DNA of 64,000 nucleotides. It comes from Gammaproteobacteria bacterium (lineage in GTDB: Bacteria; Gemmatimonadota; Gemmatimonadetes; Longimicrobiales; Gaopeijiaceae). Location: positions 19,765 through 83,764 of the forward strand of contig JAPPHB010000118.1 in NCBI GenBank assembly GCA_028821195.1, written 5' to 3'. Positions 2,766 through 59,200 of the stretch are shown here, piece by piece (the stretch's first letter is position 1; each line of letters begins with the position of its first letter). A program made the translations under genes and the position numbers. The notes under the pieces were generated by a model. The model did no database searches. It was given only the letters and a program-made list of their open reading frames with translations, and had not been told where the DNA came from.

Positions 2766-4544
2766 TCAGTGCTCCGAGGACTCCTCCATGGCCTCCCGCG
2801 CCGCGGCCTCGATCTCCCATGGGATAGCTGAGTCGCGATAGAGGGCAGCCCCGTTCGACAGGATGGGATCCTTGCCTTTCGCCGGGGCTTGGGGATGAGC
2901 CGTTGGGACCGGCACGCTCGCGAGCGAAGTCTCGGCCGGGGCGCCGGGATGAACCGTTGGGACGGGCGGCAAGCCCGCAACCAAAGTCTCAGCCGGGGCG
3001 CCGGGATGAGCCGTTGGGACCGGCGGCAAGCCCGATCTCTCGCCACCTCGAGCCGCTTTGGGCCTGCTCGGCGCGTCCACGAGCATCCTCCCCCTCGGCG
3101 TGAAGAACAGCACCGTCCCGTCACCGTTCACGGATACCTTCACCCGCCCCTCGTGAACGGCTCGATGATGCCGCCGGCAGAGCAGCAGCGTGTTCCGGAG
3201 GCTCGTTTCGCCCCCGTCGGCCCAGTGCTTCACATGATGGGCCTCGGTAAACGTGCAGCCACACCCCGGAAAGCGGCATCCCCGGTCCCGCTCCTCCAGC
3301 GCCCGACGGATATGCGGCGGAATGGTGCGCGTGCGACGCCCCACGTTCAGCATCGAGCCGTCCTTCGCGTGGACCATCGCGACCACCGCGGCATCGCACG
3401 CCATACGCCGCGACGTCTCCGCGGAAACGCGGATCCCGTCCAGATCCGAACGCCCGGGCTCGCCTTCGGCCGCGAGCGTCGCGGCGTCGCAATGAACCAT
3501 GACCTGGTAGCGCTCGGCCCGGGTGCCGGACCCGACGCGGGCTGACGTGTTCGCCGCATTCTCCGCCTTGGCTCCCGGCGTTTCCGCGGGCGCTCCCCGC
3601 AGGGCTGCATTGGACTCGGTGGTCTGAGCACCATCGAGTTCATCGAGGTCGCGACCCATCGTATTCCCATCGCCATCCGATTCACGGCGCTCGCCACCTC
3701 CGAACCCGGCGGCCAGCGCTCGTTCCGCCAGCAGCCCCACCGCATCCGCCCGGCGCTGCTTCGGCTCGAGGCGCGCATCGGCGGCCTCGCCACTGGCACC
3801 CCTTCCACTTCGCGCCCCTTCTCGGGCATCGTCCTCGGACCGAAACAGCGCATCCGACGCCGCCTCGACCGCCCGCATCAGCACCGCCCCGACCTCCGGC
3901 TCGAGCCGGCCCTTCACCACGTACATCCCGTCGCCGTCCACGAAGACCGAGAAGGTGCGGCTGCGGTGCCGGGCCTGCTCGGCGGTCAGCTCCGCGTCGC
4001 GCGACAGCTTCCTCCACATGCGCACCGTCCGCTCCAGCTTCGCCGCCGAGCCCGCGCGGGCGAACTCGAGCAGCTCCGCCTCGCGCTCGGGAGTCGCAAC
4101 CCGGGTGAGCGCCCGCACCTTGGCGTACGAGATAGTCCCGTGCTTCAGAGCGTCGGCGGTCTGCGGCAGACGCTCCAACGCGCGGGCCGTCCGCACCCGT
4201 TCGCGGGCCGTCCCCATCTTCGTGCCGGTCCTCCAGGCCAGCCATTCGGCGCAGGAGGAGTAGCCGCCGTCCTTCCACCCGCCCCGCCGGTCGAACTCGG
4301 CGATCAGAGTCATCATGCGCGCCTCGGCGGAGTTGATGCGGGCCGCCAGTTCCGCGATGCGCTCGCCCAGCTTGCGGAGTTCGTCGTCGTCACCGTCGCC
4401 CGCGGCGCGACTCGGGGCGTGCTCGGGATCGGAGGGCGCGGGGTTGGCGTCGAGTCGCACACCCGTCGGTTCCCGCACCATCGCGGGCCACGAGGAGGGT
4501 TTCCGGCGAGTGTTGTAGAGAATGTCCGCAGATGGGATCAACAT
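2766..4544 (-). CDS. DUF222 + HNH endonuclease family protein (REP13E12-like), copy A
   Basis: DUF222-like N-region (AELAARINSAEARMMTLIAEFDRRGGW, TISYAKVRALTRV). C-terminal HNH motif CRFPGCGC..EAHHVKHWADGGETSLRNTLLLCRRHHRAVHEG. The ORF is open to 4598, but ATG 4544 behind GAGAGGA aligns with the start of the paralog at 37769/37766. Confidence 0.85.
   Translation of the reverse strand: MLIPSADILYNTRRKPSSWPAMVREPTGVRLDANPAPSDPEHAPSRAAGDGDDDELRKLGERIAELAARINSAEARMMTLIAEFDRRGGWKDGGYSSCAEWLAWRTGTKMGTARERVRTARALERLPQTADALKHGTISYAKVRALTRVATPEREAELLEFARAGSAAKLERTVRMWRKLSRDAELTAEQARHRSRTFSVFVDGDGMYVVKGRLEPEVGAVLMRAVEAASDALFRSEDDAREGARSGRGASGEAADARLEPKQRRADAVGLLAERALAAGFGGGERRESDGDGNTMGRDLDELDGAQTTESNAALRGAPAETPGAKAENAANTSARVGSGTRAERYQVMVHCDAATLAAEGEPGRSDLDGIRVSAETSRRMACDAAVVAMVHAKDGSMLNVGRRTRTIPPHIRRALEERDRGCRFPGCGCTFTEAHHVKHWADGGETSLRNTLLLCRRHHRAVHEGRVKVSVNGDGTVLFFTPRGRMLVDAPSRPKAARGGERSGLPPVPTAHPGAPAETLVAGLPPVPTVHPGAPAETSLASVPVPTAHPQAPAKGKDPILSNGAALYRDSAIPWEIEAAAREAMEESSEH
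2884..3040. repeat. In-frame tandem repeat (units of 54, 57 and about 40 nt) inside HNH copy A
   Basis: Units start at 2884, 2938 and 2995 (ggggcgccgggatga(a/g)ccgttgggac...). They encode GLPPVPT(A/V)HPGAPAET three times. Copy B carries a single unit (DLPPVPSVRPGAPSTRE). Confidence 0.85.
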
Positions 4545-4555
4545 TCCTCTCAACA

Positions 4556-4592
4556 TGAGATCGTACAATGACTTACATACAAATATAACGCC
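4556..4592. promoter_or_regulatory. Conserved AT-rich island upstream of HNH copy A (candidate divergent promoter region)
   Basis: This is the only AT-rich stretch in an otherwise GC-rich 600 bp: tcgtacaatgacttacatacaaatataacgcc. It is conserved at 37781-37816 in locus B. -10-like hexamers occur on both strands (TACGAT toward HNH; TCGTAC-N17-TATAAC toward the motif array). Confidence 0.35.
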
Positions 4593-4753: not shown

Positions 4754-5004
4754 CCGTCAATGGCAGAATGGGACACGCACATGTGAATTCGGGACGCGGC
4801 GGGGGCGGGCAGCTGACCTTTGGCGAACAACCAGCCAGTGGCGCGCGCGACCGCCCGTCAATGGCAGAATCGGCCACCCGAATGTGAATTCGGGACGCGG
4901 GCGCGCGGGTGTCGCCGACCCCTCGACCGGGACTACTGCCCAATACCGACGCGCTCGCCCGTCAATGGCAGAATGGGACGGCCGAATGTGACTTCAGGCC
5001 GTCC
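4754..5004. repeat. Array of three 45-bp bipartite motif copies with unrelated 56- and 59-nt spacers
   Basis: Copies at 4754-4798, 4855-4899 and 4959-5003. Consensus C(C/T)GTCAATGGCAGAAYGGGAC-N6-ATGTGAATTCGGG. The periods of 101 and 104 bp are not multiples of 3, and the motif falls in different reading frames. Confidence 0.9.
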
Positions 5005-5168: not shown

Positions 5169-5375
5169 ATGAGCGACGATCAACTCAATCATCCGGCCGA
5201 CCGACCCGATCCCACGGCCGACCGACCCGATCCCACGGCCGAAGAGTCCGTCGATGTCGGGGGTCACCCCAGAGGGACGCTCGCCATCGTCGGCATCTAC
5301 GGGCTGCTGTTCGTCGTCGGCTGGCTGTTCATCTACTTCGGGGTGTTCCTGCCCCGGGGCCCCCTGACCCAGTGA
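5169..5375 (+). CDS. cbaD: ba3-type cytochrome c oxidase subunit IIa (single-TM peptide) with an extended N-terminus
   Basis: The C-terminal TM segment PRGTLAIVGIYGLLFVVGWLFIYFGVFLPRG resembles the Thermus subunit IIa pattern (KGALAV...F.ARG). It sits directly upstream of subunit II. Confidence 0.7.
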   Translation: MSDDQLNHPADRPDPTADRPDPTAEESVDVGGHPRGTLAIVGIYGLLFVVGWLFIYFGVFLPRGPLTQ

Positions 5376-5407: not shown

Positions 5408-6073
5408 ATGCACGTAAATCTCTACGAGAAGATCTGGATGTACGCCGCGGCGGGGATCATCCTCGTCTTCCTGGCGTCGATGGGCTACACCACGCTCGGG
5501 CGCGCCATGCAGCCGCCCAGCCACATCGAGACCATCGATCCGGCGTCCGTGCGCACCGACCCGGAGTTCGGCAGTCCGGGCGTGACGATCCATGAGGACG
5601 GCACCGCGACGGTCGTGATCCAGGCCTTCATGTTCGCGTTCCTGCCCCTCGAGATCCGGGTGCCGCGGGGAAGGGACGTCACCTTCCGCATGACGAGCCC
5701 CGACGTGATCCACGGGTTCCAGATCGTGCAGACCAACGGCAACACGATGGTCGTGCCGGGCTACGTGAGCCAGTTCACGACCCGGTTCGACCGGGCCGGC
5801 GAGTACCTCATCGTGTGCAACGAGTACTGCGGCGTCGGCCATCACGTGATGTCGGCGACCCTCATCGTCGAGGACATGCCGGCATCGGCCGGAACCGGGG
5901 AAGCGCCGGCCGAGACCGGGGAAACACCGGCCGAGACCGGGGAAGCGTCAGCCGGAGCCGGGGAAACACCGGCCGAGACCGGGGAAGCGCCGGCCGGAAC
6001 CGGGGCGTCCGCCGGAACCGGGGCGTCCACCGAGACCGGGGAATCCGCCGCCGGGACGGAGGGCGACCGATGA
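5408..6073 (+). CDS. cbaB: ba3-type cytochrome c oxidase subunit II (CuA) with a repetitive acidic C-terminal tail
   Basis: One N-terminal TM segment, a cupredoxin domain and the CuA motif HGF...CNEYCGVGHHVM. The stop TGA 6071-6073 overlaps the subunit I ATG (ATGA). Confidence 0.9.
   Translation: MHVNLYEKIWMYAAAGIILVFLASMGYTTLGRAMQPPSHIETIDPASVRTDPEFGSPGVTIHEDGTATVVIQAFMFAFLPLEIRVPRGRDVTFRMTSPDVIHGFQIVQTNGNTMVVPGYVSQFTTRFDRAGEYLIVCNEYCGVGHHVMSATLIVEDMPASAGTGEAPAETGETPAETGEASAGAGETPAETGEAPAGTGASAGTGASTETGESAAGTEGDR
5888..6052. repeat. About eight 21-bp (7-aa) in-frame tandem repeats in the subunit II tail
   Basis: gcc(g/a)ga(a/g)ccggggaa(g/a)c(g/a)ccg units start at 5888, 5909, 5930, 5951 and 5972, then degenerate. 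They encode AETGE(A/T)P-type repeats. Confidence 0.85.
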
Positions 6074-7707
6074 TCGGGGGCGTGAGGGACGGGGGCAGGA
6101 AGCTCGCGCTCGCGAACCTGTGGGTCGCCATCGGCGCCTTCGCGGTGGCGTCCGGGATGGCGTTCATGCAGTCGCTGTCGCGAGCCAACCTCGATCTGCC
6201 GTTCCGGAGCGCGAGCGTCTACTACATGTCGGTGACGGCGCACGGCGTCCTGATGGCGATCGTGTTCACCACGTTCTTCATCATGGGCTTCGGCTACGTG
6301 GTGGCCGAACGCGCGCTGGGCCGGCCCATCGTATTGAAGAAGCTCGCCTGGGCTTCCTGGTGGGTGGCGCTGATCGGCACCGCGATGGCCGTCTGGGCGA
6401 TCCTGTGGGGTGAGGCGTCGGTGCTCTACACCTTCTATCCTCCGCTGATGGCCCATCCCCTGTTCTACATCGGGGCCGCGCTCGTGATCGTCGGCTCGTG
6501 GGGCTGGTGCTGGGTGATGGCGCGCACCTGGATGATCTGGAAGAGGGAGAATCCGGGGGTGCGCACGCCGCTCCCCGTGCACGGCATGCTCGCGACGATC
6601 ATCGTCTGGGTGCTGGCCACCATCGGCGTGGCGGCCGAGGTGCTGATCCTGCTGATTCCGTGGTCGCTGGGCATCGTCGACACCATCGACCCGATGCTGG
6701 CGCGCATCCTTTTCTGGTGGTTCGGCCACCCGCTGGTGTACTTCTGGCTGCTGCCGGCGTACGTCATCTGGTACACCATCACGCCGAGGATCGCGGGCGG
6801 GAAACTGTTCAGCGATCCGCTGGCCCGGCTGGCGTTCGTGCTGTTCATCCTGCTGTCCACGCCGGTGGGCTTTCACCATCAGCTCGTCGACCCCGGCGTG
6901 TCGGCCGGCTGGAAGCTCTTCCACACGTTCAACACGCAGCTGATCCTCTTCCCCAGCTTCGTCACCGCCTTCACCGTCATCGCGTCGTTCGAGGTCGCGG
7001 GCCGCATGAAGGGCGCCAGGGGCCTGCTGAACTGGCTTGAGGAGCTTCCCTGGGGCGATCCCGCGTTCTCAAGCGTCGCGCTGGCCATGCTCATGTTCGC
7101 CGTCGGCGGATTCGGCGGAGCCATCAACGCCGCCTACGGGATGAACGCCATGGTGCACAACACCGCGTGGATCCAGGGACACTTCCACCTGACGGTGGGG
7201 ACCGCGGTCGCGCTGACCTTCATGGGGACGTCGTACTACCTCCTGCCCCGGCTGACGGGCCGCGAACTCGAGCTGTCGCTGCTGGCGCGCATCCAGCCCT
7301 ACCTGTGGTTCGGCGGAATGCTGCTCTTCTCCATCGCCAACCACCTGACGGGGCTCGCCGGCATGCCGCGGCGCGTCTACGACGCCAGCTACGGAGGCAG
7401 CGAGATCGCGCAGCAGTGGGTGGCCGGCACCGGCATCTCGGCGGTCGGCGGCATCCTGCTGTTCATCAGCGCCGCATGCTACGTGGCCGTGATGCTCGGC
7501 ACCGGACTGGCGGGAAGGAGAATCGACCCCGAGCCCATCGAGTTCGCCGAGCCGCTCCAGGGCGAAAACGGCAAGGCCCCCATCCTCGACCGCTTCGGCC
7601 TGTGGTTCATCGTCGCCGCCATCCTCGTCGCCGCGGCCTACGCCTGGCCCATCGCCGAGCACCTGTCGATGGAGCGCTTCGGCTCGCCGGGGTTCCAGCC
7701 GTTCTAG
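6070..7707 (+). CDS. cbaA: ba3-type cytochrome c oxidase subunit I
   Basis: Polytopic heme-copper oxidase pattern (WWFGHPLVYFWLLPAY, HHQ, HNTAWIQGHFHLTV). ATG 6070 forms an ATGA overlap with the subunit II stop. Confidence 0.9.
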   Translation: MIGGVRDGGRKLALANLWVAIGAFAVASGMAFMQSLSRANLDLPFRSASVYYMSVTAHGVLMAIVFTTFFIMGFGYVVAERALGRPIVLKKLAWASWWVALIGTAMAVWAILWGEASVLYTFYPPLMAHPLFYIGAALVIVGSWGWCWVMARTWMIWKRENPGVRTPLPVHGMLATIIVWVLATIGVAAEVLILLIPWSLGIVDTIDPMLARILFWWFGHPLVYFWLLPAYVIWYTITPRIAGGKLFSDPLARLAFVLFILLSTPVGFHHQLVDPGVSAGWKLFHTFNTQLILFPSFVTAFTVIASFEVAGRMKGARGLLNWLEELPWGDPAFSSVALAMLMFAVGGFGGAINAAYGMNAMVHNTAWIQGHFHLTVGTAVALTFMGTSYYLLPRLTGRELELSLLARIQPYLWFGGMLLFSIANHLTGLAGMPRRVYDASYGGSEIAQQWVAGTGISAVGGILLFISAACYVAVMLGTGLAGRRIDPEPIEFAEPLQGENGKAPILDRFGLWFIVAAILVAAAYAWPIAEHLSMERFGSPGFQPF

Positions 7708-36239: not shown

Positions 36240-37769
36240 TCATCCGAGAGACTCTTCGACGGCTTCCCGCGCTGCGGCTTCGATCTCCCAGGGGATATCG
36301 GCGTCGCGATAGAGGGCAGCGCCATTAGGGAGCTTGGTAAGTTCACGCGTCGACGGGGCCCCGGGACGGACCGATGGGACAGGCGGCAGGTCTGGGTTCG
36401 AGCGCTGCTCCGCTGAATCCGCCCACCCGCGCCGCTTCCGCGCTTCGGCCCGCTCGACCCGCTTCGGCGCATCCACCAGCATTCTTCCCTTCGGCGTGAA
36501 GAACAGCACCGTCCCGTCACCGTTTACGGATACCTTGATCCGTCCCTCGTGAACGGCGCGGTGATGCCGCCGACAGAGCAGCAGCGTGTTTCGGAGGCTC
36601 GTCTCACCCCCGTCCGCCCAGTGCTTCACGTGATGCGCCTCGGTGAACCTGCACCCACACCCGGGAAAGCGGCATCCACGGTCGCGTTCCTCCAGCGCCC
36701 GGCGGATGTGCGGAGGAATCGTGCGCGTCCGGCGACCGACGTTCAGCAGCGAGCCGTCCTTCGCGTGGACCATCGCGACGACGGCGGCATCGCACGCCAT
36801 GCGGCGCGACGTTTCCGCGGAGACGCGGATCCCGTCCAGATCCGAGCGTCCCGTCTCGCCTTCGGCCGCAAGCGTTGCCGCATCGCAATGGACCATGACT
36901 TGGTAGCGCTCGGCGCGGGTGCCGGACTCGACTTTGCGCTCCGAGTCCGAACCAGCCGTCGCTCCATCGTCTGGCGTCGCGCTCGACTCGCCGCCCCCGA
37001 ACCCCGCCGCCAGCGCCCGCTCCGCAAGCAGCCCCACGGCGTCCGCCCGGCGCTGTTTCGGCTTCGGCCGGGGATCATCGGGACCAGGCTCGCGGGTCGC
37101 CGCGCCCCCTCCCCTGCTTCCGGCATCCCGTCCGCCATGGGCGGCCCCGCCCTCGCCCCGGAACAGCGCATCCGACGCCGCCTCCACCGCCCGCATCAGC
37201 ACCGCTCCGACCTCCGGCTCGAGCCGTCCCTTCACCACGTACATCCCGTCGCCGTCCACGAACACCGAGAACGCGCGGCTGCGGTGCCGCGCCTGTTCGG
37301 CGGTCAACTCCTCATCGCGCGACAGCTTCTTCCACATGCGCACCATCTGCTCCAGGTTCGCCGCCGACCCGGCGCGTGCGAACTCGAGCAACTCTGTCTC
37401 GCTCTCCGGAGTAGCCACGCGCGTGAGCGCCCGCACCTTGGCGTAGGAGATGGTCCCGTCCCTAAGGGCGTCGGCGGTCTGCGGCAGGTTCTCCAGCGCG
37501 CGGGCGGCGCGGACCCGTTCGCGGGCCGGCCCGATCGTGATGCCGATCTTCCAGGCCAGCCACTCGGCGCAGGAGCCGAACCCGTCCTTCCAGCCGCCCC
37601 GGCGATCGAAATCGGTGATGAGGGCCATCATCCGGGCTTCTGCGGCGTTGATGCCCTCGGCCAGCTCCGCGATGCGCTCGCCGATCTGGCGGAGTTCATC
37701 GTCGTCGTGGGGCCGGGGAAGAGGCTTCTTGTGAGTGTCGTAGAGAAGGTCCCGGGATGCGATCATCAT
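36240..37769 (-). CDS. DUF222 + HNH endonuclease family protein (REP13E12-like), copy B
   Basis: Same architecture and motifs as copy A (CRFPGCGCRFTEAHHVKHWADGGETSLRNTLLLCRRHHRAVHEG). ATG ATG at 37769/37766 behind GGGAGGA. The ORF is open to 37835. Confidence 0.85.
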   Translation of the reverse strand: MMIASRDLLYDTHKKPLPRPHDDDELRQIGERIAELAEGINAAEARMMALITDFDRRGGWKDGFGSCAEWLAWKIGITIGPARERVRAARALENLPQTADALRDGTISYAKVRALTRVATPESETELLEFARAGSAANLEQMVRMWKKLSRDEELTAEQARHRSRAFSVFVDGDGMYVVKGRLEPEVGAVLMRAVEAASDALFRGEGGAAHGGRDAGSRGGGAATREPGPDDPRPKPKQRRADAVGLLAERALAAGFGGGESSATPDDGATAGSDSERKVESGTRAERYQVMVHCDAATLAAEGETGRSDLDGIRVSAETSRRMACDAAVVAMVHAKDGSLLNVGRRTRTIPPHIRRALEERDRGCRFPGCGCRFTEAHHVKHWADGGETSLRNTLLLCRRHHRAVHEGRIKVSVNGDGTVLFFTPKGRMLVDAPKRVERAEARKRRGWADSAEQRSNPDLPPVPSVRPGAPSTRELTKLPNGAALYRDADIPWEIEAAAREAVEESLG

Positions 37770-37780
37770 TCCTCCCAACG

Positions 37781-37816
37781 ATATATTGTACATTGAGTTA
37801 CATAAAATATAACGGC
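37781..37816. promoter_or_regulatory. Conserved AT-rich island upstream of HNH copy B
   Basis: atatattgtacattgagttacataaaatataacggc. TACAAT reads toward HNH. TTGTAC (37786-37791)-N16-TATAAC (37808-37813) reads toward the motif array. Confidence 0.35.
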
Positions 37817-37977
37817 ACCGGAATCGGCCTCCCACGATGCTCTGTAATGGCCGAAGTGGGGTCGGGAGAAGATCGAGGAAGGAAGGGGCCTGCGAGCGCT
37901 CTCACAGAGGCGGTCAGCGCTGCTGGCGGGCTATGGAGTCCGGGATATCGGATTGCGTCGAGGCGCGCGCCGAAATC

Positions 37978-38103
37978 CTGTCAATGGCAGAACGGGACGC
38001 GCCGATGTGAATTCGAGCGAGACTTGGCGCGGGCCCGCGGGAGCCGTACGTCGAGCTCCTGTCAATGGCGAGACTGGCCCTGCCGATGTGAATTCGGGCG
38101 ACG
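37978..38103. repeat. Array of two copies of the same 45-bp bipartite motif with a 36-nt unrelated spacer
   Basis: Copies at 37978-38022 and 38059-38103 (ctgtcaatggcagaacgggac gcgccg atgtgaattcgag...; ctgtcaatggcgagactggcc ctgccg atgtgaattcggg...). Same orientation relative to the HNH gene as in locus A. Confidence 0.9.
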
Positions 38104-38218: not shown

Positions 38219-40450
38219 TCAGCCCCTCCCCCCGCCCTCCGAGTGCAACCGCAGCACCGGACCCTGGTCCCGCTCCAGCGCGCTGCCCCGTCCCGACAGG
38301 CTGGGGTTGTTCATGAAGTAGTCGTGGGCGCTGAAGGCGCGCTTCCCGTCCGGCACCCGGCTGTAGGACCCGTCGGCCGCCAGGCGCCAACTGCTCTCGG
38401 TGTCCTTCAGGTTCGCGACCATGATCTCGTCGAGGATCTGGCGGTGCACCGTCCGGTTGGTGACCGGAACCAGCAGCTCCACGCGCCGGTCCAGGTTGCG
38501 CGGCATCCAGTCCGCCGATGAGATGAACACCTTCGCCCGGTCCGAAGGCAACTCCGCCCCGCCCCCCACGCACACGATGCGCGAGTGCTCCAGGAACCGG
38601 CCCACGATGCTGGTCACCGTGATGTTCTCGGAGAGTCCCGGGACGCCGGGGCGCAGGCAGCAGATGCCGCGCACCACGAGATGTATCTTCACGCCCGCGC
38701 GCGAGGCGTCGTAGAGGGCGTCGATGACCTCGCTGTCGAGCAGGGAGTTCATCTTGGCCCAGATGCCCGCGGGCTCTCCCCGGCGCGCGCGTTCCGCCTC
38801 GCCTGCGATGAGTTCGAGCAGCGTGCTGCGCATGGTGAAGGGCGCGATCGACAGCTGGTCCAGGCCCTCGGGACGGGCATAGCCGGTCATGAAGTTGAAG
38901 GCCCGCGCGGCATCGCGCGCCAGCGCCGGATCGCACGTGAAATACGACAGGTCAGTGTAGATCTTGGCGGTCACCGGGTGATAGTTCCCCGTACCGAAGT
39001 GGACGTAGGAGCGGAGCGACCCCGCCTCCCGTCGCACCACCAGCGAGATCTTGGCGTGCGTCTTCAGCTCCGCCACCCCGAAGACGACGTGCACCCCGGC
39101 GCGCTCCATCCCGCGCGCGAAGGCGATGTTGGCCGCCTCGTCGAAACGCGCCTTCAACTCGACCAGCGCGGTCACGTTCTTGCCCGCCTCGGCCGCCTCG
39201 ATCAGCGCCGTGACGATGGGGGAGTCCTGGCTCGTCCGGTAGAGCGTCTGCTTGATGGCCACCACGGCCGGATCCTCGGCGGCCTGACGCAGCAGCTGCA
39301 CCACCACGTCGAAGCTCTCGTACGGGTGGTGCACGAGGATGTCCTTCATGCGGATGGCGGCGAAGCAGTCCCCGCCGAAGTCGCGAATCCGCTCCGGGAA
39401 GCGTGCGTTGTAGGGCGAAAACACCAGATCCGGGCGATCGTCGCCGATGAGCTGCGCGGTGTCGCCCAGCCCCAGCAGGTCGCCCTCGCGGAAGATGTCT
39501 GCGGGGCCGACGTCCAGCTCGCGCATCAGGAAGCGCTGCAGGGTCCCGGACATGCCGCGCGACACTCTCAGGTGGATGACCCGCCCCCTGCGCCTGCGCT
39601 TGAGCGCGGATTCGAATTCCAGCAGCAGATCCTCGGCCTCGTCCTCGATCTCCACGTCGCTGTCGCGGATCACGCGGAAATACCCGGTCTCCCTGACCGC
39701 AAAGCCCGGGAAGAGGCTGTCCAGGTGCATCCCGAGCAGCTCCTCGAGGCGAATGAAGCGCTGGTTCTCTCCCGGAATGGCGATGAAGCGGTCGATCTGG
39801 GAAGGCAGCGGAAGCAGGGCGTGCATCTCGGTGCCGTCCCGCGGGCGCGCCAGCGACAGCACCATTGCGTAGCCGGTATTGGGGATGAAGGGGAAGGGAT
39901 GGGCCGGGTCCACGGCCAGCGGGGTAAGGACCTGGAAGATCTGCTCGTCGAAGTAGGCGTCCAGGGCCGAACGCGCGGCCCCGCTCAGCTCGTTCGGATG
40001 CGCGATGACGATGCCCACGCCGCGCAGTTCGTCACGCACTTCGCGCCATCTCTTCTGCTGGCGCACCATCAGCGCCCTGGCACGGCGGTCGATGGCCCGG
40101 AGCTGCTGGGCCGGCGTCATGCCCTCGGGGGTCGTGGTGGTAATGCCGGCGTCCACCTGGGCCCTCAGCCCCGCCACGCGCACCATGTAGAACTCGTCGA
40201 GGTTGGTGGCGGAGATGGAGAGGAAGCGCAGCCTCTCCAGCAGCGGATGCCGGGAGCTCGAGGACTCCGCCAGCACGCGCTCGTTGAACGCCAGCCACGA
40301 GAGCTCCCGGTTGATGAAGCGCTCGGGGGCTTCAGGCGTCAGGGTCTGGGCAGCAGCTGCCTGGGTCACGCGGATCGGCTCCGGCACCGGGGACACGAAA
40401 CGCCGCCCGCCGGTCCCGGCCGGTGCGGCGCATGTCGAAGTCTGTACCAT
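38219..40450 (-). CDS. ppk: Polyphosphate kinase 1
   Basis: [17 protein letters not shown] start and four-domain PPK1 length, with C-terminal PLD-like domains ([18 protein letters not shown]). Confidence 0.9.
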
Positions 40451-51619: not shown

Positions 51620-51836
51620 GTGCCTGGCCGTTGGATGCGAAGGCGTGCCGGACGACACTGCCTGAAATGGCAACCATCTCTTAAGATATAACGACCGGGT
51701 CGCCGGAGCGCATTGAGTTGAGCCCGAGCGGACACTAGTATCCATGGTTGTCCCCAAGGAGACGGCGGACGCGGGGGCGGGTAGCGATATCGACGTTTTC
51801 AACACCGCGCGCAACATACGGAAGGGAGTATCCCGC

Positions 51837-56271: not shown

Positions 56272-59200
56272 CTAGCGCTCGCGCACCTCGCGCACCAGCA
56301 CGCTGCGACTGACCGAGACCTCCGCGGCGGTGCCGAGCGATTCCGGGCGGACCCGGGACCAGTCGCGCACGATGCTGAGGATGCGCCCGGTCGAGCGGCT
56401 GGTCACGATCGCGCCTCCTCCGCCGCTGTCGCGGTCCAGCGTCGTGAAGCCCTCGGGGCCGGTCAGCGTCACGCGCGCCAGCTCGTCCGCCCGGCCCTCC
56501 TCGACAGGTACCGCAAACAGGAAGCCCGCGCCGCCGTGGTCGATCCTGTCCGGCGTGAAGCTCAACGAGAACATACGTCCTCCCGCCGCGTCGATGCCTT
56601 CCAGCCGGTATGGGCCCGGTGACGTGGGAAGCTTCACCGGCGTTTCCCACTCGAAGACGGGTTCCAGGCGCAGCTCTCCGTCCTGAACTCTGCCCCACAG
56701 CAGCAGCGTTTTCTCGACTGCCGTTGCTCCGGCGGCGGCGGTTGGCGCCGGTGGAAGCCCCATCCTGTACTCGAGGGCCTTCGTGAAGCTGAAGTCACTG
56801 GTCCACGCCGGGTCGCAGTAGGACATGAAGTCTCGGTAGCGGGCCGGACTGATCAGCCTGCCGAAGTCGCCTCCGGTGCTGAAATCGACGCCCCAGACGC
56901 CCGTGTATGCGTCGGTGTACGGGTAATCCGGATCGGGCCCGCCCGCTCCGCAGCCCGGAGCGTGCCGGAGGGTGAGGTTGTGGCCCAGTTCGTGGGCCAG
57001 GGTGGCGCCGAAGGGTCCGTCGCCGCGATAGACTCCCGCAACGTGTGACAAGGTCAGGCCGGCCCACCCGCCGATGTAGGCGACGCCCCCAAAGCCCCAC
57101 GACCCCCGATAGCGCGAGGCCGGCAAGGCCAGGATACCGTGATAGTAGTCGTTGGTGCCGCCCGCTTCGATGAATCGGAGCAGGTGGATTTCGCCGAGAA
57201 GCCCGAAGCCGCCCTCCTCCACCGTGTCGGCTTGCGTCATGTACGGCTCCCGCACGCTGATATTCAACGCGGAGAGCGGCAGCAGAAACTGGGTCTCCTG
57301 CAGCGCCGCGTGAGAGTTGCTGGTGGCCAGGTCCGCGACCAGAGCGGCCACCGGGGCATTGTCCACCTTGCTGGTCTCCGATTCGAACGCGACCGGCACA
57401 AGCGTCACGTCGAGCGGGGGCAGCGTGCGCACGTCCAGCTCCTCGCGACCCGTCGCCGGAATGCGCATCTCGCTGCCGGCAAGCGTCGACAGGGTGCTGT
57501 CCGGGTCGATCTCGACCACCATCTCCAGGCCGGGCTGCACGACGGAATCGGGGATCATGGCGTTGAAGGAGGCGTCCAGGCTGCTCTCGTCCACCCTTCT
57601 GGGCAGGCCGGAAGGCGGGGTCAGATCGGCAACGTGGATCTCCTCTTCGTCGAGATAGAAGGTGGCCCGCGCGGAAGGACGGTACGAGTTCAGAAAGTCG
57701 GCGGTCACGAAGACCCGGAGCAGCGCCTCGCGGTTCGCGACCAGCGGCACCTTGCCGGCGTAGGACTGTGTGGCCTGAACGAGGTAGGCGGCCTGCGCTT
57801 CGACCTTCAGATCCGGCGGGTTGACCAGCACCAGCGGTGTGCCGGCGACGGGCGTGATGCCCTCGAAACAGAGGAAGCCTTCGCACTCGTCCTCAGGCGT
57901 GGCCGGCAGGGAGTCGAGCTGGATGTACTGCGAGACGCTGCCTTCCCGGCGGGTCACGGTAACCAGTCGGCTGAGCGTGTCTCCGGCGGCGATCGAGACG
58001 ACCGTCGAGCGCGGCTCGCCCCCGCGGGCGCCGAACACGAGGCGCATGTCGAACGGGGCGCCCTCCCTGACCGCGATGCCGATCTGTGCGGGTCCTTCCG
58101 CCAGCGGGTCCTCGTTGTCCGTCCTTACGGCTTCCAGGGTAAGTGGGAAGGGATCGGTCAGATTGTCCTCCAGCCAGAGAATCTCGAGTGAGGCGAGGCC
58201 GGCGAACACGCCCCGAGGCAACTCCGTCAGCGCATTGCCGAAAACAGAGAGATTCTTGAGATCGGGCGTGCCCTGAAAGACTCCTTCCGGCAGTCGCGTC
58301 AGGTCGTTTCGGTGCATGTACAGCTCGGTCAGATCGCCGAGGTCGTCGAGGAGGCCGTCGGGCAACTCGGTCAACTGGTTGTCGCCGAGGCTGAGCAAGT
58401 CGAGGTCGTCGAGGCCGTCCAGGACGCCATCGGGCACCTCGCTCAGCCGATTGTACGAAACGGCAAGGGTGTCGAGGCTGGTGAGGTCGGCAAAGACGCC
58501 GTCGGCCAGTTCCGTCAATCGGTTCAGGTAGATCGACAGGTAGTTGAGTTCGCTGAGGCCGCCGAAAACACCCTCGGGAAGCGACGCCAGCCGATTTCTG
58601 CTGAAATACAGGTTCCTGACGTCGGTGATGTTGTCGAAGACGCCTTCGTTCAACTCGGTCAAGCGGTTTGCCGAAAGCGTCAGGTACTCCAGGCTGGTCA
58701 GATCGTCGAAGGCGCCCGCCGGCAACGCGGAAAGGCGGTTGCCCGACAATCTGAGCCCCTTGAGTTCGGTGAGGTTGTCGAAGACGCCGTCGGGCAGTGT
58801 CTCAAGTTCGTTACCACCCAGCCAGAGGGTGTCCAGAGCCGTCATGTCGGCGAAGATCCCCTCGGGCACGGTGGTCAGCCAGTTGGATTGCAGGTAGAGC
58901 TTCTTGAGAGCAGTGAATCCGCTGAAGCTGCTGTCGGGCAGTGCGGTCAGCGCGTTGCCCGAAAGATCGAGGTATTCCAGCCCGGTGAGCGCTCGGAAAA
59001 CGCCTTCCGGGAGCGATGCCAGCAGGTTCTCCTCGAGATTCAGCGTGTCGAGGTTCGCGACATCGGCGAAAACGCTGTCGGGCAACCCTCTCAGGAAGTT
59101 ATGGCTGAGGTCCAGGAACACGAGGCCGCGCAGCCCCTCGAAATCACCATTCTTGAGGGAGATGATGCGCTCGTCCTCGCCGTCGGCTCCCGCCATGTCC

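Follow-up and report, generated by a model that had tools for sequence, protein, structure and literature searches.

Iterons are contiguous direct repeats of 17-22 bp that lie ~21-22 bp apart upstream of rep genes, near an origin. In the F plasmid, the ParB-type protein SopB binds sopC, a set of 12 direct 43-bp repeats, each with TGGGACCACGGTCCCA, GGTCCCA half sites (PMC3177203). Genes of the 13E12 family are DNA-damage-induced in Mycobacterium tuberculosis and coincide with genome rearrangements and inversion breakpoints (PMC13157036). Here we describe short repeat arrays upstream of two paralogous DUF222-HNH (13E12) genes in a GC-rich stretch of 64 kb from contig JAPPHB010000118.1 (the window, whose coordinates are used throughout). 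The array falls outside curated RNA families, CRISPR-like arrays, and the centromere and iteron classes, whose defining features were absent on testing; judged by analogy, its working may be closest to that of protein-binding repeats of the centromere or iteron type. In our reading, to which we give a probability of about 0.5, the repeats are protein-binding sites on double-stranded DNA, arranged as a phased array within the control region of a nuclease gene, and the predicted helix-turn-helix (HTH) domain of the nuclease is the likeliest binder. The literature searched contained neither a link between 13E12/DUF222 and ParB nor an upstream array of this kind.

Five matches to a degenerate pattern (GTCAATGGC-N17-TGTGAMTTC-like) were found in the window, all on the + strand (4756, 4857, 4961, 37980 and 38061), against a chance expectation of 0.00 from 100 shuffles. 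They form two arrays, A and B, each upstream of a minus-strand DUF222+HNH gene in the same relative orientation, with 212 nt (A) and 211 nt (B) between the end of the proximal copy and the ATG. An earlier inspection of the letters of this DNA (the sequence-only reading) had reported two copies at locus B with a period of 81 nt and a 36-nt spacer, as well as the same position and orientation relative to the HNH gene at both loci. All of this was recovered, the 36-nt spacer being measured with the boundaries used in that reading. It had also described two separate conserved cores, which are indeed conserved but are better seen as one bipartite unit of 41 nt. On the gene (minus) strand this unit reads CCCGAATTCACAT-N6-GTCCCATTCTGCCATTGAC, with g.CCCGAATTCACAT-nyGnGn-GTCCCATTCTGCCATTGAC as the longer consensus. 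Its two half sites start with GTCCC (present at the start of the first half in many copies), their starts are 21 nt apart, and the 6-nt linker between them is hypervariable.

At locus B, the proximal box B1 (37979..38019, minus strand) matched the pattern, occupies columns 1-41 of the alignment of upstream regions described below, and reads CGCTCGAATTCACAT-CGGCGC-GTCCCGTTCTGCCATTGACA on the gene strand. The distal box B2 (38060..38100, minus strand), 81 nt from B1, is more diverged (GGCCAGTCTCGCCATTGAC). The spacer between the two boxes (38020..38059) could not be aligned with the spacers of locus A (26/54 identical in a gapped alignment). Locus A holds three copies within 4755-5000, all pattern matches and all listed on the minus strand: the proximal box A1 (4755..4795, also supported by alignment), box A2 (4856..4896) and box A3 (4960..5000), with successive periods of 101 and 104 nt. 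The arrays were not picked up by Tandem Repeats Finder because their spacers are too diverged.

Several features are shared with sopC, namely tandem direct repeats of ~40 bp (those of sopC measure 43 bp; here a 41-bp core recurs in units of 80-104 bp), a GGTCCCA-like half site in each repeat, which is a resemblance only, a ParB-type HTH protein encoded beside the array (predicted here), and a copy number that varies between replicons. In contrast, the sopC sites are 16-bp inverted repeats, whereas the half sites here are direct, non-identical and 21 bp apart, with no inverted repeat. There is also no ParA ATPase partner and no N-terminal CTPase domain of ParB, but an HNH nuclease instead, and the arrays sit at multiple chromosomal loci, each ahead of its gene, whereas sopC is downstream of its operon. 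Iterons resemble the arrays in their direct sites phased at about two helical turns, a nearby AT-rich block, a variable copy number, and a position upstream of the gene for their own binding protein, in the same orientation as that gene (self-binding is only a candidate here). They differ in that the loci described here have no Rep protein or origin features and number many per chromosome, that the AT-rich block, at a distance of ~170 bp, has the appearance of a -10 element, and that the units are 80-104 bp long and not contiguous, except for 20-nt half-unit arrays at two related loci (L037 and L004).

Interspaced repeats beside a nuclease gene and a short variable segment within a conserved unit also recall CRISPR and TIGR arrays. 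However, the variable segment is 6 nt, there are 1-5 units with no repeat hairpin, no Cas or Tas proteins are present, and the spacing varies from 75 to 181 nt. Nor are the spacers of one array unique inserts, as a guide array would require: they are diverged copies of one another, which excludes this reading. A structured non-coding RNA (an Rfam family, or an omega-RNA/HEARO-like element) was likewise rejected for lack of a curated match, conserved structure or covariation. The adjacent gene belongs to the DUF222-HNH (13E12) family and shares with REP13E12 of M. tuberculosis the DUF222 + HNH architecture, the multi-copy state, and the dispersal of gene plus upstream region as a repeat. The differences are the phylum, here Gemmatimonadota, and the box array and fixed 167-nt leader, neither of which was found in the actinobacterial copy examined or in three further clades.

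The array is one part of a larger conserved control region, since the gene-proximal flank is conserved too. The sequence-only reading had described the surroundings as not conserved. This was true of the inter-copy spacers and the distal flank, to which the unalignable parts of A and B are limited (26-33 identical of 54-57 nt), but not of the ~210 nt from the proximal copy to the ATG, which are ~70% identical and almost gapless between the loci and include a conserved AT-rich block. In a nearly gapless alignment of 50 upstream regions (alignment A2), columns T209, A210, A212, T213 and T214 were invariant. They belong to a TTATATT block (37806..37812 at locus B and 4582..4588 at locus A, both minus strand) that is almost invariant across the 50 loci and sits 42-52 nt upstream of the start codon. 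The distance from the end of the proximal box to this block was 167 nt in 43/49 loci, as it is from box A1, and 166-168 nt in 49/49. Despite this fixed length, the intervening leader (37813..37978 at locus B, minus strand; near-gapless in alignment A2) is 63% identical in sequence. It holds conserved blocks of its own, including GGTCTCCCRAC and CAGGGCATCCTGAGAGGCCGAT, and no degenerate box copies, position-weight-matrix scores within the 167 nt being all strongly negative. The rigid spacing suggests an architectural constraint between boxes and promoter.

A promoter scan at locus A returned CTGAGA-18-TATATT, in which the conserved CTGAGA lies 18 nt upstream of the block, and the local GC content dips to 0.38 around TTATATT. 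These elements likely constitute a weak sigma-70-type promoter with TTATATT as the -10 element of the HNH gene. A Shine-Dalgarno sequence, GGGAGGA (37770..37776, minus strand), read from the sequence and conserved in alignment A2, directly precedes the ATG at 37769. Other promoter readings were considered and rejected. A sigma-70 promoter inside each unit would need a -35 and a -10 hexamer 16-18 nt apart; every box has an invariant TTGAC at its 3′ end, but this is followed by nothing like a -10 hexamer, and the scan found no promoter-like site in the arrays. The sigma-54 pattern GG-N10-GC scored 7-8/11 at best, and likeness to extracytoplasmic function (ECF)-type and mycobacterial RecA-NDp promoters (TGTCRGTG-N8-TAnnnT) failed at the -10 position by eye.

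Three further observations concern these promoter elements. The AT-rich stretch between the -10-like block and the Shine-Dalgarno sequence (37777-37805 and 4553-4581, both minus strand; columns 217-245 of alignment A2; consensus TTGTACGTAAGTCATTGTACAAT) contains TTGTAC-N10-GTACAA and GTTA-N10-TAAC symmetries, and could serve as an operator that overlaps the promoter. The promoter-proximal block (ACAGGGCATCTGCGAGGGTCGA…TATACTT, ~1100-1165 of L095) is retained in a DUF222-HNH clade at 45% identity that has no box array, so the block appears older than the array. A third, weaker match to the HNH -10 block (CGTTATATCTTAA; 51681-51693, minus strand) stands in an intergenic-looking position upstream of a long minus-strand open reading frame (ORF), and could be either a further promoter of this type or a coincidence.

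The motif was surveyed in 80 related loci from bacterial genomes, all Gemmatimonadota-type metagenome-assembled genomes (MAGs), together with the two window loci; some genomes gave several loci (e.g. seven from OZ245327.1). Counting copies at up to 4 mismatches, we found 99 copies upstream of 53 DUF222-HNH loci (Gemmatimonadota, Longimicrobiales), and 99/99 were co-oriented with the gene. One copy was present in 21 of the 53 loci, two in 22, three in 7, four in 2 and five in 1. Unit periods cluster at 80-83 nt and 99-104 nt within an overall range of 75 to 181 nt. No motif copy was found elsewhere in ~650 kb (window plus loci); extra matches ~3.5 kb downstream in L041, L043, L047 and L048 were dismissed as chance matches within a coding gene. 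An unbiased scan of metagenome contigs for an exact 19-mer gave 10 matches, 7 of which adjoin a DUF222-HNH gene or its leader, while the other 3 look like chance (a few chance matches are expected, as estimated from the 19-mer length). The same 19-mer had no match in viral contigs.

In the close clade, upstream regions hold 164 GTCCC versus 44 of the reverse complement. A clade at ~55% protein identity carries a homologous yet diverged box (GTCCCAAATC...TAGTCCCATCCAGCCATGTAC), plus further GTCCC-N16-GTCCC-N4 units; its upstream regions contain 134 GTCCC versus 32 of the reverse complement, and coding sequence of the same total length contains 2 GTCCC. The commonest start-to-start spacing of successive GTCCC is 21 nt in both clades (47 cases in the ~55% clade, where it is dominant). 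The nearest relatives of the window, the syntenic ppk1-HNH locus among them, come from MAGs titled Gammaproteobacteria bacterium SB066x bins (L001, L006, L008, L020, L021 and others), labels that look like a misclassification because all other relatives are Gemmatimonadota (Longimicrobiales). Judged by its relatives, the window itself belongs to a Gemmatimonadota genome of Longimicrobiales type.

Mean pairwise identity was computed over 47 loci, with codon positions taken from the most conserved protein domain of the gene. Half sites 1 and 2 reached 0.86 and 0.90, respectively, and the 6-nt linker 0.44. The leader gave 0.63 at columns 41-165 and 0.72 at columns 166-206, the TTATATT block 0.89, and codon positions 1, 2 and 3 gave 0.90, 0.905 and 0.69, respectively. 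Since the half sites match the non-synonymous positions and exceed both third codon positions and leader, the boxes are under purifying selection. Selection on the motif had been proposed in the sequence-only reading, and a comparison of the motif with the non-coding flank had been set beforehand as the way to refute it; when this comparison was run, the motif was the better conserved.

The suggestion that the loci are not a simple recent segmental duplication and that copy number is dynamic was also borne out. Loci A and B are old paralogues, each with a syntenic orthologue in another genome. L001 is placed downstream of ppk1 like locus B and likewise has two copies 81 nt apart, and L037 and L004 adjoin the same divergent gene as locus A. 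Where window locus A has three full units, L037 has one full unit and five 20-nt repeats of the half unit TTCGGCCATTGACGGGYGGC, indicating that array turnover is real and that the second half site can amplify alone. These half-unit arrays (2595-2700 in L037 and ~2655-2700 in L004) stand in place of full units.

Both window genes encode proteins that pass the Pfam curated cut-offs (DUF222, PF02720, 98 bits versus 24.4; HNH, 25 versus 21.4). Gene B (36240..37769, minus strand) encodes 509 aa, with Pfam E-values of 7e-28 for DUF222 and 2e-5 for HNH, and gene A (2766..4544, minus strand) encodes 592 aa, exceeding B in length through a proline-rich repeat insert. A 57-nt tandem repeat of 2.8 copies at 2881-3034, inside HNH-A, which also occurs at 36327-36383, encodes a proline-rich segment (…PPVPTAHPGAPAET…) near the HNH-A C-terminus and explains part of the difference. 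The catalytic and zinc residues of the HNH domain (His, Asn, Cys) are invariant or nearly so in alignments of 49 and 79 homologues.

HTH_ParB was the sole recurrent extra Pfam family, in 8/79 diverse members (best E 4e-4) and 9/49 close members, and it matched the isolated residues 65-150 at an E-value of 0.0047. A first AlphaFold model, from the 49 close homologues, was unusable (predicted local distance difference test score, pLDDT, 48.8), while a model from the 79 diverse homologues had a pLDDT of 78 overall and 88-98 over residues 30-140. When this model was compared with the PDB by Foldseek, HNH matches (McrA, IscB) took ranks 1, 2, 4 and 17, and the others in ranks 3-20 were ParB-family structures with probabilities of 0.84-0.99 (Spo0J, Noc, and Myxococcus and Bacillus ParB), including the Noc DNA-binding domain on DNA at a target template-modelling (TM) score of 0.64. 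From these sub-threshold Pfam matches and the structural model, the DUF222 part of the protein (residues 77-145 of HNH-B, 37335..37541, minus strand, and likewise in HNH-A) likely holds a ParB/Noc-type HTH DNA-binding domain. The putative recognition helix differs between clades (ARERVRAARAL versus ARENVRVAHAL) in step with the change in the box, in a sample of two. A ParB/Srx CTPase domain is absent, with no ParBc match in Pfam and a single long helix before the HTH in the model, and no ParA gene occurs among the neighbours. Sequence searches of the PDB returned nothing, and PADLOC gave no match for the protein. The "DUF222" of a paper on MksG proved to be DUF2220 and is irrelevant.

Taken as protein-binding sites, the boxes would belong to a control unit whose parts, in 5′-to-3′ order along the gene strand, are 1-5 boxes of 41 bp placed ~80-104 bp apart, each with two GTCCC-initiated half sites 21 bp, or two helical turns, apart, then a rigid 167-bp spacer, the putative weak sigma-70-type promoter (CTGAGA-18-TATATT), the Shine-Dalgarno sequence and the nuclease ORF. 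We infer that a sequence-specific protein occupies the boxes and that, once bound, it would control transcription of the nuclease gene, anchor the nuclease beside its own gene, or both. The likeliest binder would be the predicted ParB/Noc-like HTH in the DUF222 part of the nuclease, supplied from the same locus and its paralogues, and such self-binding would give feedback control. Copy number may shift through unequal recombination or slippage between units, with selection retaining both half sites.

Several observations weigh against this proposal. The half sites are direct and unlike each other, whereas ParB-type HTH dimers normally bind inverted repeats. At 170-400 bp from the putative -10 element, the boxes are far off for a classical repressor or activator, and the unit periods of 80-104 bp are non-integral numbers of helical turns. 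HTH_ParB scores of 13-17.5 bits fall under the gathering cut-off of 22.6, and the Foldseek E-values are weak (0.25-0.9). A pairing signal between a leader block and the Shine-Dalgarno region, described below, may hint, if real, that the leader is transcribed. Finally, the array has no counterpart in the three other DUF222-HNH clades examined, at 41-51% identity, or in an actinobacterial plasmid copy; self-binding, if it occurs, is lineage-specific.

Instead, another transcription factor of the host, such as a regulator of the DNA-damage response, could use the boxes as operators or enhancers and control the whole family of DUF222-HNH paralogues, without the nuclease being the binder. We consider this possible, if somewhat doubtful. 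The same box core is shared within one genome by paralogues with only 60-75% protein identity, the 13E12/DUF222 genes of M. tuberculosis are reported to be strongly induced by DNA damage (PMC13157036), and TTCACA and TTGACA in the half sites resemble the direct repeats of response regulators. A LexA-like box, CTGT-N8-ACAC, also lies before the ATG of a distant DUF222-HNH homologue, in the same place as the AT-rich stretch (bases 705-725 of L092). A host regulator, however, has to be squared with the absence of the box before other genes in the ~650 kb and in 7/7 interpretable metagenome matches. In addition, no candidate regulator gene is linked to the loci, and a site-specific DNA-binding domain is predicted within the product of the gene itself.

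Alternatively, the array could be transcribed in a long 5′ untranslated region or as a separate RNA, so that the boxes would be single-stranded RNA-binding motifs, for instance in translational feedback or RNA-protein assembly. The co-orientation of every box with the gene and the strong strand bias of GTCCC fit such a role, although common descent also explains co-orientation, and at locus B the same-strand ppk1 gene upstream makes read-through possible. Yet neither strand showed conserved secondary structure or covariation, and no promoter-like site was seen within or upstream of the units. Rfam searches of the whole window at the gathering threshold, and of both upstream regions at E up to 10, returned only a tRNA elsewhere and noise. 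RNAalifold on 50 sequences, over both strands and 100-nt windows, gave -0.6 and -2.2 kcal/mol and no consensus structure; a mutual-information scan of 99 box copies showed no Watson-Crick covariation; and an exhaustive stem search (at least 4 bp, at least 85% pairing) found no helix. The two window leaders folded no more stably than shuffles (z-scores -0.2 and -1.25). Coding potential was equally absent from leader and array: no 3-nt periodicity was seen, reading frames do not stay open consistently, and the periods are not multiples of 3.

One leader block did show a pairing signal. TCTCCCRAC (columns 154-162 of alignment A2; 37858-37866 of the window) is complementary to the GTTGGGAGG Shine-Dalgarno region (columns 251-259; 37773-37781, minus strand). 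Its core CTCCCRAC pairs with the GTTGGGAG Shine-Dalgarno region at 80.1% versus 77.1% in shuffles, a difference that relatedness alone can yield, and a compensated change from C-G to U-A (CTCTC with GAGAG) was seen in three loci (L008, L017 and L020). Anti-Shine-Dalgarno pairing of TTCCTCC with GGAGGAA had no support. These few compensated changes stand within what relatedness can give, and we regard a function of the boxes in RNA as quite unlikely.

A third explanation takes the boxes as cis sites for cleavage or recombination, at which the HNH nuclease nicks or cuts the array and promotes gene conversion, duplication or mobility, with no part in transcription control. The conserved HNH catalytic residues are compatible with this, as are a family that is multi-copy per genome, arrays remodelled at orthologous sites, and a repeated unit common to paralogues that starts immediately distal to the array and ends at the stop codon; the 13E12 loci of M. 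tuberculosis are moreover recombination and inversion breakpoints (PMC13157036). But the rigid 167-nt distance to the promoter block favours a role tied to expression, synteny of the loci between genomes means that they have not moved recently, and the copies within a genome are highly diverged. A search for mobile-element ends found no inverted box copy downstream of the gene, no terminal inverted repeats, and no second end or target-site duplication. Together these points make a cleavage-site role very unlikely. At the 3′ end of the gene, the last ~18-20 nt (…GGAGGAGTCTCTGGA…) are repeated one to three times right after the stop codon in L015, L033, L046 and L048 (also in L013, L041 and L047); this repeat is not universal, with any match, some of them weak, in 9/43 loci.

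That the copies are functionless neutral remnants of tandem and segmental duplication is barely credible: the inter-box spacers inside an array do resemble each other, which indicates that whole ~81-nt units were duplicated, but the half sites are conserved like non-synonymous codon positions while synonymous sites and leader have diverged, and the same architecture persists in the 55%-identical clade.

The HNH gene stands alone, with ppk1 and an S9 peptidase gene as its neighbours. The ORF at 38219-40450, upstream of array B and on the same strand as gene B, encodes polyphosphate kinase, in agreement with the earlier naming of the ORF at 38219 as ppk1. A perfect 21-nt repeat of 2.3 copies (5194-5242) lies at the start of a small ORF that diverges from array A. 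Elsewhere in the window, 21-nt tandem repeats (PAETGE-like, 6.7 copies; 5886-6083) occupy the 3′ end of a cytochrome c oxidase subunit II gene, and a 72-nt periodic repeat of 5-6 diverged copies (58322-58796) falls within coding sequence and has the look of a repeat protein.

The DUF222-HNH (13E12) proteins, which have no known function, make up an enormous family, with 28,702 clusters at 50% identity matching at E up to 0.001. The present analysis offers two testable handles on it, a 41-bp bipartite box under purifying selection at a rigid distance from the promoter, and a predicted ParB/Noc-like domain. With these, what the nuclease does can be addressed by simple assays of binding, reporter expression and cleavage. 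Should the protein bind its own array, the ParB-type fold would have a new use, in which a nuclease is tethered to a private repeat array. Otherwise, the boxes would mark out a regulon dedicated to a nuclease family, in a phylum that has received little study. A more far-reaching idea, which we think unlikely, is that DUF222-HNH loci are autonomous modules, in which a ParB/Noc-like nuclease would recognise a private centromere-like array, throttle its own expression, and nick or cut locally, driving gene conversion, duplication and rearrangement between paralogous loci. If true, they would represent a new kind of self-targeting, recombination-promoting genetic element and would give a mechanistic handle on the 13E12 family.

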